Shown here: positions 46,757-58,395 of the stretch, piece after piece
Position numbering within the stretch: the stretch's first letter is position 1
How the letters are laid out: each line of letters begins with the position of its first letter
Origin: Truepera sp.
GTDB lineage: Bacteria > Deinococcota > Deinococci > Deinococcales > Trueperaceae
Reading direction: 5' to 3'
DNA length: 64,000 bases
Assembly: GCA_965218435.1 (NCBI GenBank)
Contig: CBDCKW010000005.1
Location: forward strand, 620,835 to 684,834
The notes under the pieces: generated by a model
Seen by the model: the letters and a program-made list of their open reading frames with translations, nothing else
Databases searched by the model: none
Told to the model about the DNA's origin: nothing
Translations under genes and position numbers: made by a program

Positions 46757-48214
46757 GTGGCCCGCACTCCCACTCTGAGCTTCGACCGTGGCACCCTGAT
46801 CTTGCACCCGCCGCCACGCGGCAAAGCGTGGGTCGACTTCGCCACCTGGGACGACCGGGTCGAGAAGTTTCGAATCCCGGCGCTGCATTACCGGTCTCTG
46901 GTTGAAGTGCTCAAAAACACAGGCACCGAGGTCACCGACAAAGCGAAAGCGTTTGGGATTCAGCCGTTCGAGAAAGCGGGGGCCAGGGAACCGCTCACGC
47001 ATCAAGCTGAAGGTCTCTCGGCTTGGCTGCAAGGGGGTCGACGCGGTACGGTCGAGTTACCGACCGGGTCGGGCAAGACGTATCTGGCGCAGCTGGCGAT
47101 GCGGGCTACCCCGAGAGACACGCTAATCGTGGTGCCCACCCTCGTTTTAATGCACCAGTGGTACGCCGAGCTCAAAGCGAACTTCGTCGGCGTCGACGTC
47201 GGCCTACTAGGGGGCGGCTCGAACGACCGGACGCCTATCTTGATTGCGACGTACGACAGCGCCGCCATTCACGCCGAAGCACTTGGCAACCGGTATGGCC
47301 TGCTGGTATTCGACGAATGTCATCATCTACCTTCAGGGTTTTATAAAAGCATCGCCGAGTACTCACTCGCTCCGTACCGTTTGGGACTGACAGCAACGCT
47401 CGAGCGTAGTGACGACAAACACCAAGAACTCGACGAGCTGATCGGGCCGCTGGTCTACCAAAAGAAACCTGAGCAGCTGGCCGGTGGGGCGTTAGCCGAC
47501 CACAAGATCGTGCAGCTCCGGGTTGAACTCTCGAACGACGAACGAGCACGTTACGACAAGCTTAGAAATGTTCGCGACGCCTTTTTAAGTTCAAACAATA
47601 TTTACCTGGGGACGCTCGAAGGTTGGCAGCGCTTTGTGATGGCAAGTGCAAGATCGAAAGAGGGACGCGCCGCCATGCTCGCCCACCGGGAAGCCCGGGC
47701 GTTGGCGTTCGGCACCGAGGCCAAGCTAAGGGTGTTGCGTGAACTGCTCGAGCGCCACGCTACCGATAGGCTGCTGATTTTTACCGACGACAACGCCACG
47801 GTCTACCGGGTCTCACAAGCACTTTTGATTCCTGCGATTACTCATCAGACCAAGGTCAAAGAGCGCGACGAGACCCTCACCCGGTTTCGCAGTGGCGTCT
47901 ATCAAAGGGTCATCACCTCGAAAGTCCTCAACGAAGGCATCGACGTACCCGAAGCCAACGTCGCCATCGTCTTATCGGGGACCGGTCAGGTGCGTGAGCA
48001 TGTCCAGCGGTTAGGTCGCATCTTACGCAAGGGCGAAGGCAAACTGGCGCTACTCTACGAAGTTGTCGCCGCCGACACCGCCGAAGAGGGCACCTCGAGA
48101 CGGCGGCGGGGCGAAGACCGTCCTGGTTCGGCTAGACGACCAGAGCCTGAGAGCAGACCCTTATTCGATACCACCGACAAGATCGACGAACCTTTAACGT
48201 TTGAGGACCTTTAA
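46757..48214 (+). CDS. XPB/Rad25-like SF2 DNA helicase
   Basis: PTGSGKT, FDECHHL, GLTAT, EGIDVP and QRLGRILR; leaderless TATCCT-6nt-GTG. Confidence 0.92.
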   Translation: MARTPTLSFDRGTLILHPPPRGKAWVDFATWDDRVEKFRIPALHYRSLVEVLKNTGTEVTDKAKAFGIQPFEKAGAREPLTHQAEGLSAWLQGGRRGTVELPTGSGKTYLAQLAMRATPRDTLIVVPTLVLMHQWYAELKANFVGVDVGLLGGGSNDRTPILIATYDSAAIHAEALGNRYGLLVFDECHHLPSGFYKSIAEYSLAPYRLGLTATLERSDDKHQELDELIGPLVYQKKPEQLAGGALADHKIVQLRVELSNDERARYDKLRNVRDAFLSSNNIYLGTLEGWQRFVMASARSKEGRAAMLAHREARALAFGTEAKLRVLRELLERHATDRLLIFTDDNATVYRVSQALLIPAITHQTKVKERDETLTRFRSGVYQRVITSKVLNEGIDVPEANVAIVLSGTGQVREHVQRLGRILRKGEGKLALLYEVVAADTAEEGTSRRRRGEDRPGSARRPEPESRPLFDTTDKIDEPLTFEDL

Positions 48215-49452
48215 TGCTGACGACCGACCTGCTCTTACACCGCTATAACGGCGAAGAGGTCACTCCGACCCGGTTGCCGCTCGACCGTAAGAACCTAGCT
48301 TTGGCTGATGAAGTAATGGCTGTCTTTTTTGAAAACAGGGGTAAGAAACGCCTCGAGCTCGATGAACAGCTTCTTGCACTCGAGGGAACCGAAACCGACT
48401 ACCGGGTCAAACGCGGTCTGGCACACCTCCTGACTACCGGCTTCTGCACTTTCGAGACGGTGAGTCCGTTGGAACCGGTGGCGTTACGTGAACGGGTCTT
48501 CAGCCTCTCGGCCACCCGAACCCCGGGCGACCAGATGACAGCTCTAACGCTGCAAGAGGTCGCTGACGCCTTGACGCAAGAACTAGGTCGAGAGGTAACC
48601 CCGGAAGGAGTCAGTGAAGGACTCTACGCCGACCTCGCTGAAAACCAGCTTCTAATTGGCTTTGAAGCTCCCGCGAACGAAGCCCTCTTGCACCGCTACA
48701 ACCTCGCCCAGGTGCAGGGCGTCTTGTACCGGGCGTCCGAACTCGTCATTACCGCCCACCGTAACGATCCAGGTGAATACAAGCTGTTGTTCCGTTACCT
48801 CAAACTGTTCGGGTTGATGACGACCATCGAAGGCGACGCCGATCACGGCTACACCATCACCATCGATGGCCCGACGAGTGTCTTTGGCTCGAGCACCCGT
48901 TACGGGGTCGACTTAGCCAAGTTCTTACCCGCCTTACTCCACGTCAGCCGCTGGGAGCTGACCGCTACGCTTGCTCCTCGCACACTACCGGACGGTCGGG
49001 AAACACCGAACCGCTTCACGCTCGAGTCGGGGTGTGGGCTCGTCTCGCACTATAAGAAGGGCAAGGTGTTCGACAGCATCATCGAGGAGTCATTCTCAGC
49101 AAGCTGGGCCAAGACCAAGACCGAGTGGCGTTTAGAACGAGAAGTCGAACTCGTACCCCTTCCTGGCAGCGTGATGGTACCCGACTTCCGGCTGGTTCAT
49201 CCGGATGGGCGTACCTTTGTGCTGGAGATCGTCGGCTACTGGCGTCCTGAGTATCTCAAGAAGAAGTTCTTCCAGGTCGCCCGTTCAGGTCGCGACGACA
49301 TCATCTTGCTGGTTTCGGAGCGGCTCAACCTCGAGAACGCTGGTGTTAAGGTACATGAGACACCGGCTAAGGTGGTGTGGTTCAAGGGCAAGGTCAATCC
49401 CAAAGATGTGCTGGCCGTACTCGAGGGTGCTGCAGCTGTGAGTAAAGCCTGA
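48214..49452 (+). CDS. DUF790 / Bax1-like endonuclease
   Basis: YNLAQVQGVLYRA, IDGP.S.F..TRYG, FDS.IE and PDF..LEIVGYW; coupled to the helicase (TAATG). Confidence 0.9.
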   Translation: MLTTDLLLHRYNGEEVTPTRLPLDRKNLALADEVMAVFFENRGKKRLELDEQLLALEGTETDYRVKRGLAHLLTTGFCTFETVSPLEPVALRERVFSLSATRTPGDQMTALTLQEVADALTQELGREVTPEGVSEGLYADLAENQLLIGFEAPANEALLHRYNLAQVQGVLYRASELVITAHRNDPGEYKLLFRYLKLFGLMTTIEGDADHGYTITIDGPTSVFGSSTRYGVDLAKFLPALLHVSRWELTATLAPRTLPDGRETPNRFTLESGCGLVSHYKKGKVFDSIIEESFSASWAKTKTEWRLEREVELVPLPGSVMVPDFRLVHPDGRTFVLEIVGYWRPEYLKKKFFQVARSGRDDIILLVSERLNLENAGVKVHETPAKVVWFKGKVNPKDVLAVLEGAAAVSKA

Positions 49453-49488: not shown

Positions 49489-49749
49489 ATGACGTACACT
49501 ATCGACCGCTTTGAAGATAACAACCTGGCGGTCCTGGAAACCGACGACAGCACTACGGTAGACGTGCCTCGGACTCAAGTACCCCCTGAAGCCAAAGAAG
49601 GGGATGTGCTCATCGAGCTAGCCGAGAACGACTTCGACGGTGAGGTTCGTTACGCCGTGGACGTTGAGGCGAGCGAACAAAGGCGACGCAAGGTGAGTGA
49701 CCTGCGGACCTCTCTCCCTACGGTCGCTGAAGGCGATATAGAGCTGTGA
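49489..49749 (+). CDS. DUF3006 domain protein
   Basis: TIDRFE..AVLE..P..AKEGDVL; leaderless TACACT-6nt-ATG. Confidence 0.85.
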   Translation: MTYTIDRFEDNNLAVLETDDSTTVDVPRTQVPPEAKEGDVLIELAENDFDGEVRYAVDVEASEQRRRKVSDLRTSLPTVAEGDIEL

Positions 49750-50795
49750 AACGCTTTTATGTGCTCCTTGTCCTTCTCATTACCTGCACTGGCGTGACGC
49801 CACCTACGTCTGCTCAAGAGCTCGAGCTGCACTTTATCGACGTGGGTCAGGGTGACAGCGTGCTGATCCGGAGCCCTTCAGGTGAGAACGTCCTCTACGA
49901 CGGCGGCCGCGGCGACGACGCCGTCCTTGCATATTTGCAATCGGTCGGGGTTGAAAGCTTGGACCTGGTGATCGCCTCGCACCCCGACGCCGACCATATC
50001 GGCGGCTTGGAGGCGGTGGTGCATTACTACCAGCCCCGGTTCTTTTTAGACAACAAGATACCCTACACCACCCAAACCTACTTTGGACTGCTCGAGGCGG
50101 TTAAAGACGCCGGCAGTCAGCTGATTCCAGCCACCGATAGACGGATCGGTTTAGGCGACGCTTCGTTACAGGTGATCCCCCCACCTGGTGATGAAAGCTT
50201 GGGGAACAACGACAACTCAGTGGGGGTGATCGTTTCGTATGGGGACTTTGGCGCAGCCATGACGGGTGACGCCGAGCAACCTGAGTTTGCCTGGTGGCTT
50301 GCTAACGTACCCGACTTGCTCAGACCGGTCGAGGTCTATAAGTCGTCACACCACGGCTCTCCTAATGGGGACAGCCCCGATAGTGTCGAGACGTTCAGCC
50401 CGGAGACGGTCGTCGTCTCCGTCGGACTCGACAACTCGTATGGCCATCCCTCACCTGAAGCACTCGCCTTGTACGAGAGCATCGGGGCGAACGTCTACCG
50501 GACCGATCTGCAAGGCACCATCATCGTCACCGCTTCAGCTGATGGAACGTACCGGGTCAACGCCGACCCGAGTGAGCCCACGGTGTCTACACCAGCACCC
50601 AGCGTAGTGGAAGAAGAACCGGCAAGTGAGCTAAGCTCGAGCCTTGCGTACGACCCTTTCGGCCCGGATAAAGACTGTGGAGATTTCGCTTCACAAGCCG
50701 AAGCGCAAGCGTTCTATGAGGCAGCAGGTGGACCCGCGAGCGACCCGCACCGACTTGACGGGAACGATGACGGCGTGGCGTGTGAGTCGAACTAA
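49746..50795 (+). CDS. Secreted ComEC/Rec2-type metallo-beta-lactamase nuclease with C-terminal Excalibur-like domain
   Basis: FIDVGQGD, SHPDADHIGG, TGDAE, HHGS and YGHP; C-terminal DKDC.DF..LDGNDDGVACE. Confidence 0.9.
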   Translation: MKRFYVLLVLLITCTGVTPPTSAQELELHFIDVGQGDSVLIRSPSGENVLYDGGRGDDAVLAYLQSVGVESLDLVIASHPDADHIGGLEAVVHYYQPRFFLDNKIPYTTQTYFGLLEAVKDAGSQLIPATDRRIGLGDASLQVIPPPGDESLGNNDNSVGVIVSYGDFGAAMTGDAEQPEFAWWLANVPDLLRPVEVYKSSHHGSPNGDSPDSVETFSPETVVVSVGLDNSYGHPSPEALALYESIGANVYRTDLQGTIIVTASADGTYRVNADPSEPTVSTPAPSVVEEEPASELSSSLAYDPFGPDKDCGDFASQAEAQAFYEAAGGPASDPHRLDGNDDGVACESN

Positions 50796-50836
50796 GACCA
50801 ACCTGGACGAACGTCCCGTGATTAGGAAAGGACCTT

Positions 50837-51037
50837 ATGACAACGAAGCTAGGCTTGACCCAACCTCATACGCCTTTTGTCCCCCCGTCGGAGAATCCCA
50901 ATCCCGAGATGCCCGTCACCCCGCCGGCAGAACCGGGCACCGAACCCGAAGTGCCTGAAAAACCGCAGCCGGACAACCAGCCCGACTTACCCGACCGACC
51001 CGAGTCGGAACCTTCCGAGCCGCTCGAGCCTCGCTGA
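50837..51037 (+). CDS. Acidic proline-rich microprotein A (66 aa)
   Basis: AAAGGA RBS; P/E/D-rich low-complexity sequence. Confidence 0.65.
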   Translation: MTTKLGLTQPHTPFVPPSENPNPEMPVTPPAEPGTEPEVPEKPQPDNQPDLPDRPESEPSEPLEPR

Positions 51038-51067
51038 GCCGAACCTCACCCGTCATTAGCTAGGAGG

Positions 51068-51346
51068 TTGTCTATGATCCTGTTGACCTACGACACGCCA
51101 AGACCTAGACCTGGTACCTTTCCCGGCGTTCCGGACACCGTGGACAACCTACCCGATCTGCCCGAGCCGTTACCGGAAGAAGAACCAGGTGAGTGGGGCG
51201 ATCCAATCACGGTCAATATGCCTGAAGACCTGAACACGCCGGACGACGACCCGGAGGGCACGCCGCTAGAAGAGGACGGGCCGGAGGTGGCCATTGACGA
51301 AGACGAGGTACCACCTGCTAGAGGACCGGAGACAGAGCCGCCCTGA
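51068..51346 (+). CDS. Acidic proline-rich microprotein B (about 90 aa)
   Basis: AGGAGG RBS; motif PEDLNTPDDD; ends TEPP. Confidence 0.7.
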   Translation: MSMILLTYDTPRPRPGTFPGVPDTVDNLPDLPEPLPEEEPGEWGDPITVNMPEDLNTPDDDPEGTPLEEDGPEVAIDEDEVPPARGPETEPP

Positions 51347-51402
51347 ACTGTAACGCCTTACGCCCTGCACCAAACGCACTTTATGAAGGAGGCGAACTGG
51401 TT

Positions 51403-51603
51403 ATGGATCACCTTAAACTAACCAATCAGAAAGACCCGCGCAGGCCGAACTTACCTCAGCCTGTTACCGAAGACGAGCCGCCTGGCACGTTAGAGGAGGT
51501 GGCTCCGGAAGACCCCAAAGACCCGCTACCTAGCGACAAGGTGGTGGAAGCAGGAATACCGGCTAAAGACCCGTCGCCTGACACGACCGAGCCGCCGAGC
51601 TAA
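51403..51603 (+). CDS. Acidic proline-rich microprotein C (66 aa)
   Basis: AAGGAGG RBS; PEDPKDP; ends TEPPS. Confidence 0.65.
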   Translation: MDHLKLTNQKDPRRPNLPQPVTEDEPPGTLEEVAPEDPKDPLPSDKVVEAGIPAKDPSPDTTEPPS

Positions 51604-51614
51604 AAGGAACCCTT

Positions 51615-51857
51615 ATGCTTTCCTTCATCTTTCCGCCTACGCCAGACCCCGGTGCACCGCCCTCGCCCGACCCGATGCCGGACCCGACACCCGACCCTGA
51701 CGCGCCGACGCCTAAACCAGAGCCAGAACCGGCGTCGTTCGTGGTTCCCGAGGACCCGAATACGCCGGATGACGACCTCGACGAGCCGCCGATTGAGGAC
51801 CCGGACGATCCACAGGGGCCGCCGATTGAAGAACCACCGCCTGGATGGGGAGCTTGA
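51615..51857 (+). CDS. Acidic proline-rich microprotein D (80 aa)
   Basis: AAAGGA RBS; (PDP)n repeats, PEDPNTPDDD and PPIE twice. Confidence 0.7.
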   Translation: MLSFIFPPTPDPGAPPSPDPMPDPTPDPDAPTPKPEPEPASFVVPEDPNTPDDDLDEPPIEDPDDPQGPPIEEPPPGWGA

Positions 51858-52574
51858 GCCTGAGTGTCCCAAAGCACAGGCTTTTTATAGACGTCCATCT
51901 ACGGTGTCGCTAAGGTGAGATCAGGACACCAGTTTAATGCTGTTCGAGTTGCCAGCGTTTAAGTGGGTGATCTTACGCACGGCTTGTGCGATACTTCAAA
52001 TGGTGCACCGTTAGGCAGCGACGACGAGTTTAGGCCCGTTGTTTCGAGGACTATTCACAGCACGCGAGACCGGATGGGCACGCATTCAAGTACAGCGACG
52101 CCCTCGGAGCAAGTCACCTATACCTACCTGATTGGTCAATCCCGAGGCCTCGACCCGGAGATGACGCAACACCTGCACAATCTCATTGATCAACAATTAC
52201 GGGGAGACAGTATTATCACGTACGGTTTTGATTTATTGTCTGCATAGTTCAAAGCCGTTGTTGCCGTCGGGCTGGAACTTCTGCAACTTAAGGGCAGACG
52301 CCCAATAATGGAGTCACCTTCATCTCTACTCTTACTATTAAACCGTAATCCCGTTACCACACTCCCCCTCAAGCTCATTTCTCTCTCAAGGTTCCTACTC
52401 GGTTAGCCTTTTGGAAAACCCGAAGGAGAACCAACTGAAAAAGCCCGGGGAGGCGGGGCTCGAGGGTGAGGGTGTGGCGAGCTTTCCGTTTCAATGAAAC
52501 GGTGGATTGTCATGCTGGGTTTGTCTGAGGGTAGATTCTGTTAAGGTTTAAGCGACATACTTTAGGAGGTAGTC

Positions 52575-52856
52575 ATGACAAATATTTCAAAGTCCGATTT
52601 AGCTAAGGAACTCGCTGACGCCACGGGGATGAATCAAAAAGATACTAAAGCCTTGGTTGAGGGGTTTCTCGAGCAGCTCACCCAGCACCTCAAAGCTGGC
52701 GACAAGGTGCAGCTTACCGGCTTTGGTACTTTCGAGGTGCGTGAACGCAGCGCCCGCACCGGCGTCAACCCAGGAACGTCGGAGAAGATCGAAATTCCGG
52801 CCAGTAAGTACCCGGCCTTTAAGCCAGGGAAAAGCCTGAAAGATCAGGTTAATTAG
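52575..52856 (+). CDS. hup: HU family DNA-binding protein
   Basis: VQLTGFGTFEV, ARTGVNP.T and PAFKPGK.LK; AGGAGG RBS. Confidence 0.95.
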   Translation: MTNISKSDLAKELADATGMNQKDTKALVEGFLEQLTQHLKAGDKVQLTGFGTFEVRERSARTGVNPGTSEKIEIPASKYPAFKPGKSLKDQVN

Positions 52857-52878
52857 CTTAATCTTTTTCGAGTAGCTT

Positions 52879-53103
52879 TTACGTTTCGCTGCTCGTGTGC
52901 AAGGCGTGCTTACCTACTTCGACCGCGAACCGCTCAACACCTATACCTTCACTACTCAAGAAGTCGGGCGTCAAGCCGCCGAACCCAGTCTGCTGTTCAA
53001 GCGCGTTCTCGAGGGCAGCGCGGAAGGCTTCGATGTCACCTGCTGTCAACCTATAAACCTCCGGCAACGACAGCTCGAGCGTAACTTTGAAGCCGAGTTT
53101 CAT
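52879..53103 (-). CDS. Hypothetical protein (mobile-element gene run)
   Basis: Co-oriented, packed small ORF at the end of the operon-like run. Confidence 0.55.
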   Translation of the reverse strand: MKLGFKVTLELSLPEVYRLTAGDIEAFRAALENALEQQTGFGGLTPDFLSSEGIGVERFAVEVGKHALHTSSET

Positions 53104-57048: not shown

Positions 57049-57423
57049 AATCGAGGTAGCTCATACTCACCAGGTCGAGCATGAGTCCAATCAGGTGTTG
57101 CTGCTCGTCGGTCAGCTTGAACCCCGTAAAGTCGAGGTCGAGCAGCTCATCCGGGCTCAGGGGTTGACCTAACAAGGCGCTCACCCCCCGGCCAGCGCCG
57201 CGTCGTCCAGCCCACTCGACGACAGGCTGCGAAGCGGCGTCTCTTGATAGTAGTCGGCGAGTGGCGTACAGCTCGGCCACTCCTCTTCTCGCCGCCGCTC
57301 GAGTTCTGCCAATGCCTCGTCGTGCTGGTCGTCACGGAAGACGAGTTCGGGATACCCGCCGTTTTGCTCAGTGTGATGATTGTCGTCGTAGTCGTAACAC
57401 CTACTCATCAGCAGGTAAGGCAT
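57023..57423 (-). pseudogene. Hypothetical protein split by a frameshift in a G6 run (~57184-57189)
   Basis: MPYLLMSRCYDYDD..LAGG continues in another frame as VSALLGQPLSPDELL.. Confidence 0.5.
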
Positions 57424-57593
57424 CGCCGCCCTCCTTGACGTAGACCTTTTTGGGTTTTGGGGGAGGTGTGGTGAGATCAATCTCGAGGTCGTAACCCTGG
57501 CTTAGCCCACAAAGTCCCAAGTCGTTCGCTTCGTCGTAAAACTGCTCCTGGAGCCACTCGGTAGGCTCGTCTGGTTTTTCTTCGGCAAGGTCC
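57162..57593. repeat. 432-bp direct repeat, copy 1
   Basis: Appears identical to 57964..58395 (offset 802). Confidence 0.9.
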
Positions 57594-57963: not shown

Positions 57964-58395
57964 GGTTGACCTAACAAGGCGCTCACCCCCCGGCCAGCGC
58001 CGCGTCGTCCAGCCCACTCGACGACAGGCTGCGAAGCGGCGTCTCTTGATAGTAGTCGGCGAGTGGCGTACAGCTCGGCCACTCCTCTTCTCGCCGCCGC
58101 TCGAGTTCTGCCAATGCCTCGTCGTGCTGGTCGTCACGGAAGACGAGTTCGGGATACCCGCCGTTTTGCTCAGTGTGATGATTGTCGTCGTAGTCGTAAC
58201 ACCTACTCATCAGCAGGTAAGGCATCGCCGCCCTCCTTGACGTAGACCTTTTTGGGTTTTGGGGGAGGTGTGGTGAGATCAATCTCGAGGTCGTAACCCT
58301 GGCTTAGCCCACAAAGTCCCAAGTCGTTCGCTTCGTCGTAAAACTGCTCCTGGAGCCACTCGGTAGGCTCGTCTGGTTTTTCTTCGGCAAGGTCC
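57964..58395. repeat. 432-bp direct repeat, copy 2
   Basis: Appears identical to 57162..57593. Confidence 0.9.

Follow-up and report, generated by a model that had tools for sequence, protein, structure and literature searches.

Why would a Truepera genome carry four short, acidic, proline-rich open reading frames in tandem, and what might their products do? The window, a 64,000-nucleotide stretch of DNA to which all bare coordinates below refer, makes up the end of the 685-kb contig C5 in genome G000. All 45 tRNA genes lie on the 3.94-Mb contig C9 and none on C5, which makes C5 a probable megaplasmid or secondary replicon. An earlier note, made from the sequence alone, had described four consecutive plus-strand ORFs, each with its own Shine-Dalgarno (SD) sequence, and this was borne out by our ORF map and SD sites. 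We call the genes A to D; the features that matter here are the following.

49746..50795, + strand: ComEC/Rec2-type metallo-beta-lactamase-fold (MBL) protein with an Excalibur domain and a signal-like N-terminus, upstream of A
50837..51037, + strand: gene A, 66 aa, 30% Pro, 20% Asp+Glu; orthologue in locus L023, distant relative first in the array of genome G002; dN/dS 0.16 (95% interval 0.06-0.35)
51074..51346, + strand: gene B, 90 aa, net charge -23; dN/dS 0.34 (95% interval 0.19-0.63)
51347..51402, + strand: B-C spacer, 40 of 56 bases the same as in the paralogue; may pair with the ribosome-binding site of C
51403..51603, + strand: gene C, 66 aa; dN/dS 0.31 (95% interval 0.13-0.65)
51615..51857, + strand: gene D, 80 aa, 36% Pro; extra N-terminal module before a genus-wide core; dN/dS 0.12 and 0.07
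51856..51890, + strand: terminator-like hairpin, 7-bp stem and U run, closing the unit; weak (z -0.75)
52575..52856, + strand: HU gene, context only; lies 717 nt downstream, and the genome has four HU genes in all

The gaps are 41 nt (MBL-A), 36 nt (A-B), 56 nt (B-C) and 11 nt (C-D), and the SD of each array ORF is an AAAGGA/AGGAGG site. The lengths first reported, 66 to 92 aa, hold for A, C and D; B has 90 residues, not 92, beginning at an ATG behind AGGAGG, and its relatives also begin at ATG. We rejected the TTG start that would give 92 aa, which lacks a spaced SD and is not the start that relatives use. The leaders of A and D are alike, as had been claimed, except that D's, AAAGGAACCCTTATG, is two bases longer than A's. 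No compensatory changes were found in the possible pairing of the B-C spacer with the ribosome-binding site of C. The hairpin after D is resembled by a stem following D in L023 and is absent from the list produced by a terminator scan. A sigma-70 promoter scan of 50400-53000 returned no sites.

Are these frames genes? The four ORFs are real, selected genes, because dN/dS against a paralogue or relative lies below 1 in each. In the sense frame it ranged from 0.07 to 0.34 across A-D, and the bootstrap interval lay below 1 in all ten pairs tested. When the array was pooled and compared with a second cluster on C5, B'-C'-D' (234 codons), dN/dS was 0.24 (95% interval 0.16-0.36), with 41, 35 and 91 differences at the three codon positions; the value for A was measured against L023. 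Proline was retained at 77 of the 85 aligned positions, Asp or Glu at 56 of 74, with nine further swaps between the two acids. Four of the five other frames gave dN/dS of 1.5-6.3 (above 1.4). The antisense frame that shares third positions was also low (0.14-0.34), which we rejected as a sign of coding: it is the usual shadow, and the control neighbour gene shows the same (0.20; the sense frame of the neighbouring enzyme gave 0.10). We likewise discarded the Gly/Ser-rich ORFs antisense to B and D, as stops interrupt the antisense frames in one or both copies, pooled over B-D. The dN/dS comparison that the earlier note had proposed finds purifying selection in all four genes, and its view of maintained proteins, rather than a simple repeat or a single decayed gene, is upheld by these ratios, by the kept starts, stops and order, and by the lack of any library match. 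Selection on the sense frames suggests that A-D are translated.

Do the four genes form one family? The motifs cited for this do not bind them together. In shuffle tests B and D were related (z 5.5) and A and B borderline (z 3.2); A-C, A-D, B-C and C-D scored z 1.0-1.7, the level of composition, and the likeness of A-C, A-D and C-D is no more than that. Of the shuffles, 4-14% contain PEDP, put forward as common to C and D, and 4-8% have EPP among the final nine residues, proposed as a shared C-terminus; in relatives, C often ends in ESPS or ESPD. PED(L/P)NTPDDD is indeed present in B and D here, but it fails as a family motif: among B copies only this one has it, and it is missing from B' and from L023 B. 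Over its 30 nt in B, 24-25 bases match D and D' and 16 match B', and therefore it looks like a patch from a D-type gene.

Each lineage has conserved parts of its own. B starts with a module MxLFTYDTPRPRP...LPEEEPGEWGDP and ends with a conserved module PPARGPE(S/T)EPP, its middle patch resembling D. The conserved core of C reads PPGTLEEVAPxDPKDPLPxD...GIPxKDPSPDTT. The genus-wide core of D, (F/A)V(I/V)PEDP...EEPPPGWGA, varies in length from 48 to 91 aa, and most D cores end with EPPP followed by W or Y. By sequence comparison, A-D are four lineages rather than copies of one repeat, and these lineages exchange modules by recombination. Fusions of B and C occur in P0011, P0013 and P0042, hybrids with a D start and a B end at L034:11749 and in P0052, and cores with an extra N-terminal module ahead, like D, in P0025 and P0049. 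D itself is a longer paralogue of the solitary core gene.

The D core is present throughout the genus. The second cluster, B'-C'-D' (C5:84951-85767), has 77% nucleotide identity and the same order, and ahead of it lies a remnant of A's final codons. The A-B-C-D order recurs in this cluster (as B-C-D), in a metagenome contig, and in another species, there without B. A DNA search with the array matched 2 of 41 genomes. With a profile of C, matches came from 2 of 128 family genomes, from 19 of 29 candidate proteins, from 2 of 170 metagenome stretches and from 2 of 125 genome stretches; of this last pair one is doubtful and one does not count as an independent locus. The search with A matched 3 of 26 candidates, and an A match heads an A-like/C-like/D-like array in G002 (z 9.8). 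A profile of D built from G000 and G002 matched 4 of 128 genomes, with a solitary core in G001, G004 and G005; it missed G002's own copy, and its sensitivity is therefore limited. A wider D-core profile found the core in all six genomes of the genus (five partly by construction), in none of 122 other family genomes, in one doubtful case among 235 genomes of four other families and in 9 of 1.84 billion cluster representatives. For one core protein, P0027, the source names Truepera radiovictrix. The search for relatives and synteny that had been suggested thus gave a genus-wide D core and a recurring order, and nothing in the 122 other family genomes.

On C9 of G000 and in G004 and G005, the solitary core adjoins the same ADH-NmrA genes and shares an element, AAAAACCT(T/A)TATACTT, about 70-100 nt upstream, which is likely a -10 box. 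Two further matches were treated as chance: L026 (E 2e-4, a Burkholderiaceae record) and G165 (E 4e-4), which falls in a 243-codon frame and had no P/D/E-rich frame among those listed. Relatives covering most of the array stretch came from four sequencing runs in three studies, one a lichen metagenome with a 1,044-nt relative at 22 differences. None of the 12 sequencing runs listed was RNA, and they have no bearing on expression; Supplementary Data 3 of the metatranscriptome study PMC11519504 is described as covering genes of the metabolisms discussed there. A further acidic, Pro-rich family (C9:580788) was found in five of the six genus genomes and weakly in 2 others of 363 searched; its member in G000 (C9:580788-581039, L010:6789-7040) has 83 aa, and the family stands beside a DUF4385 gene in at least three genomes.

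Several relatives have lost parts of the array. In L023, which has the same MBL gene and the same order, a stop replaces a Trp codon in B and an insertion sequence splits C from its SD, with A and D intact; the low dN/dS that the broken copies retain marks the loss as recent. L024 has a B-C fusion and, after it and next to an integrase, a truncated D. D is frameshifted in P0022 and by a 1-nt deletion at 51806 in run X3, and P0033 together with a loose end at 51592 points to deletion of D. Since B, C and D are each broken in some relative and A is left as a remnant, the array is accessory. Between D and HU lies a 94-aa ORF (51963-52247) without a clear SD or Pfam match; the deletion in P0033 joins the end of C to it.

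Does the array travel with a partner? We compared 12 other loci of about 3-19 kb each, 11 with relatives of A-D and one with the further family. HU, XPB and Bax1 genes are missing from all 12, and the link that the earlier note had drawn from the array to HU or to the XPB-Bax1 block is not supported. The MBL gene occurs in 1 of the 12 and precedes the array here and in L023 only. As an obligate partner it was rejected: array-type ORFs lie downstream of it in none of the six informative orthologous loci, a seventh stopping at a contig edge and being uninformative. A scan of 27 neighbours turned up no family present at every locus, and no known stress gene is a constant neighbour; in keeping with the note's remark that no modifying enzyme is visible nearby, the loci have none in common. 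RDRM (short for radiation/desiccation response motif) is a 17-bp palindrome upstream of the radiation/desiccation response (DdrO) genes of Deinococcus. The best candidate in the B-C spacer has two mismatches to the consensus, and with 3,591 such sites genome-wide it was rejected. The 13 perfect RDRM sites in the genome were not seen before repair genes, and no stress regulon motif at the array exceeded chance.

Other features of these neighbourhoods deserve a record. In about five of the 11 loci, a co-oriented gene comes directly before the microgene or array and encodes a product that begins like a signal peptide, as judged by eye and post hoc from loci that are not independent (49746-50795 in the window, L023:3268, L024:4957, L007:6429 and 7539, L034:11297, L035:188). 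A SRAP gene converges on a DUF3006-MBL gene in G002 and on B'C'D' in G000 (L045:765-2810, L006:9825-10478), which suggests an ancestral plasmid block, DUF3006-MBL-(array)-SRAP, and either a loss of the array from this block or its insertion there. The pair of an XPB-like helicase and DUF790 (Bax1) at 46757-49452 has a second copy at C9:3646514-3649278 with 67-69% identity, and C5 has two further DUF790 fragments. A 99-aa ORF occurs twice, in identical 300-nt copies (57162-57461 and 57964-58263) that are 802 nt apart, through recent duplication or as an assembly artefact. In G000, CTCGAG is frequent genome-wide (1.6-2.1 per kb), and so not special near array-type copies; GGCGCC, GGGCCC and TTTAAA are nearly missing (1-4% of expected on C9). 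The excess and the scarcity point to restriction avoidance together with an iterated palindrome.

What kind of proteins are these? Pro makes up 23-36% and Asp+Glu 20-29% of A-D, where 1,690 long ORFs of the genome have 5.2% and 11.3%, so the dominance of P, E and D noticed at first is genuine. Their net charges run from -8 to -23, a strong negative charge of the kind that defines DNA mimics, and their GRAVY values from -0.98 to -1.36 (about -1.0 to -1.4); none has a cysteine or a hydrophobic stretch of signal length. A census of the 4.8-Mb genome for ORFs of 35-160 aa with at least 18% Pro and at least 17% Asp+Glu found 16 distinct ORFs, seven of them in the array and the paralogue cluster. 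C, the only one of the four for which a fold was computed, gave an AlphaFold model (13 sequences) with pTM 0.16 and no helix or strand listed. A-D are probably disordered.

We tentatively favour the reading, at somewhat under an even chance, that A-D are redundant cytoplasmic disordered polyanions that protect against stress or desiccation. They are built from a short hydrophobic start, a Pro/carboxylate chain, probably stiff and of polyproline type, and a conserved short terminus; none has an export signal. Acting in bulk and redundantly as stress protectants, they would hold client proteins in solution and bind divalent cations when the cell dries or starves, and the mobile plasmid array would add dosage atop the solitary core copies. 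A bulk, redundant role fits because the 11 other loci share no neighbour family, fusions and hybrids occur, core length varies and single genes are lost. It is also consistent with the selection, the kept Pro, Asp and Glu, the lack of a fold (C), of a library match and of an export signal, the presence in the genus of a separate family of the same composition, and the relative from a lichen metagenome; the available text of PMC1978522 calls T. radiovictrix extremely radiation resistant. Against it count the missing stress regulon motif and the missing constant stress-gene neighbour. The D profile has no match in the 122 other family genomes and a single doubtful one among 125 of a sister family, so this cannot be a general resistance factor of the order. 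Moreover, the strict ends of the D core and a dN/dS of 0.07 exceed what a purely compositional role needs, which indicates specific binding.

Such binding is the heart of the main rival, that A-D are motif-bearing adaptors or inhibitors whose conserved ends dock on a particular host protein, for instance a protease, a chaperone, RNA polymerase or the ribosome; we regard this as a lesser but serious possibility. The P/E/D middle would be a spacer and module shuffling would tune avidity or partner, the docking ends being a hydrophobic-PEDP start and the termini EEPPPGWGA, DPSPDTT and PPARGPESEP. It would account for ends that are kept across the genus over a middle of varying length, for fusions that always retain one N-module and one C-module, for the N-module ahead of the core in P0025 and P0049 as in D, and for the low dN/dS of D (0.07-0.12). 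It sits less well with the fact that no partner gene travels along and that one unit holds four lineages with different ends, and the middle, with its kept prolines, is conserved too.

Runs of PPP, PPG and EPP are EF-P-dependent pause motifs, and translation of the ORFs could itself serve as a sensor, or as a sink for ribosomes, with control over adjacent genes. D packs six PP pairs into 80 aa, where long ORFs have 0.26 per 100 aa, and this and the EPPP-W/Y ends of most D cores speak for pausing, but A, B and C have only two PP pairs each, not above expectation from their Pro content. The gene after the solitary core is convergent on C9 of G000 and in G004, G005 and G001 (and likewise in L006) and D is last in its unit, so there is nothing to attenuate, and we consider pausing unlikely. 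The proposal of the earlier note that the proteins are polyanionic decoys for HU or other basic DNA-binding proteins draws on their charge, on the HU gene downstream and on the four HU genes of the genome. HU, however, is absent even from L023, which has the same upstream gene and the array, and a weak hairpin with a U run comes after D; characterised DNA mimics are mostly folded proteins, whereas C gave no fold. Decoys are thus quite improbable.

Precursors of ribosomally synthesised peptides (RiPPs), or other substrates of a dedicated enzyme, are called to mind by tandem short ORFs with repeated motifs, by an ATP-grasp gene 1.6-3 kb from the chromosomal copies and by an M3 peptidase gene after the G002 array; the ATP-grasp gene, though, encodes a plain D-Ala-D-Ala ligase with both Pfam domains, no enzyme family is common to the 27 neighbours, and A-D lack cysteine and a leader-plus-core layout, which makes this reading very unlikely. 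That A-D are non-functional ORFs, or what is left of one decayed gene, might be argued from the broken, truncated, frameshifted and deleted copies and the remnant of A; it is scarcely credible and largely refuted by the selection test, since dN/dS intervals exclude 1 in every pair, starts, stops and SD are kept, and the core is in all six genus genomes. The remaining probability we leave to roles outside this set.

Taken broadly, the locus may belong to a genus-specific, recombining toolkit of disordered microproteins in which a conserved core is joined by plasmid arrays that shuffle docking ends of both termini over polyproline/carboxylate spacers, a new class of desiccation/oxidative-stress protectant or adaptor; as a whole this is doubtful. 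If true, part of the resistance of Truepera would have a basis that the search of related genera did not detect. Protection against drying or oxidation, if the proteins give it, would make them a small protectant of a new kind; otherwise they are a well-supported ordinary family. The cultured species T. radiovictrix (P0027) has one solitary core copy, so a simple knockout or expression test is at hand.

How do A-D compare with known systems? No Pfam family, LEA families included, matched any of the four at E<=0.1, all seven small proteins were blank in NCBIfam, and PDB sequences gave no match. A plasmid collection queried with B (low-complexity filter on) gave none; in the ESM Atlas D reached three unnamed clusters at 0.82, a lead only, and B none. 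No description was found in the literature searched, most subscription journals being outside its scope, and the families are apparently undescribed. Membership of the RDR regulon, of RiPP precursors and of leader peptides was rejected, each failing at least one defining test.

LEA proteins and hydrophilins are small, hydrophilic and unfolded, LEA proteins being Gly/Ala/Lys-rich with typical amphipathic helices. A-D are likewise small, hydrophilic and redundant, in a stress-tolerant lineage, with no fold for C. Being Pro-rich rather than Gly/Ala/Lys-rich, they cannot form LEA-type amphipathic helices. We rejected LEA membership, as no LEA Pfam match or motif is present and Pro, Asp and Glu dominate, not Gly; they may still work like a hydrophilin. 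At the start of B, Y-x-x-PRPRP (51074-51115) comes near the ribosome-binding motif Y(L/I)PRPRP of the proline-rich antimicrobials Onc112 and Api137, as given in the available text of 10.64898/2025.12.20.695498. It is a resemblance only: those peptides are short and cationic, B is a strongly acidic protein of 90 aa, and the motif is changed in 2 of 7 B-type starts (L023, P0042).

Closer in layout is E. coli YnaL (b4743, 57 aa, annotated only 'protein YnaL'), which has a short hydrophobic start and then a Pro/Asp/Glu tract, as the array proteins have. It differs in its basic C-terminal tail and in being solitary. When B, D and the D core were compared with it in shuffle tests they scored z 4-5, and A and C 1.1-1.4, values that may reflect shared layout or periodicity; profile searches had no protein named YnaL among the matches listed, and a literature search on it returned nothing. 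In Pseudomonas stutzeri, the available text of PMC10433244 describes SEP4 and SEP7, of 45-53 aa, pI 4.05 and 25-27% Pro, predicted to be cytoplasmic, lineage-restricted and detected by digest-free mass spectrometry only; by eye, unaligned, they have no motif in common with the array proteins. The same text describes SEP1, SEP5 and SEP2, an operon of three tandem Pro-rich microproteins, which differ from the array in being basic (pI 10-11), DUF6338-linked and confined to one genome (PMC10433244); it gives no function for the SEP proteins. A 47-aa, Pro-rich, Lys-tailed ORF with an SD on C9 of G000 (1011575-1011718) looks by eye like this basic trio. Acidic, Pro-rich microproteins therefore occur in unrelated bacteria (YnaL, SEP4/SEP7), with no function found in the literature searched, and such proteins are easily missed by trypsin proteomics, as stated in the available part of PMC10433244. 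To this scattered record the present locus adds evolutionary evidence: purifying selection, a genus-wide core, an array on a probable secondary replicon and module exchange.
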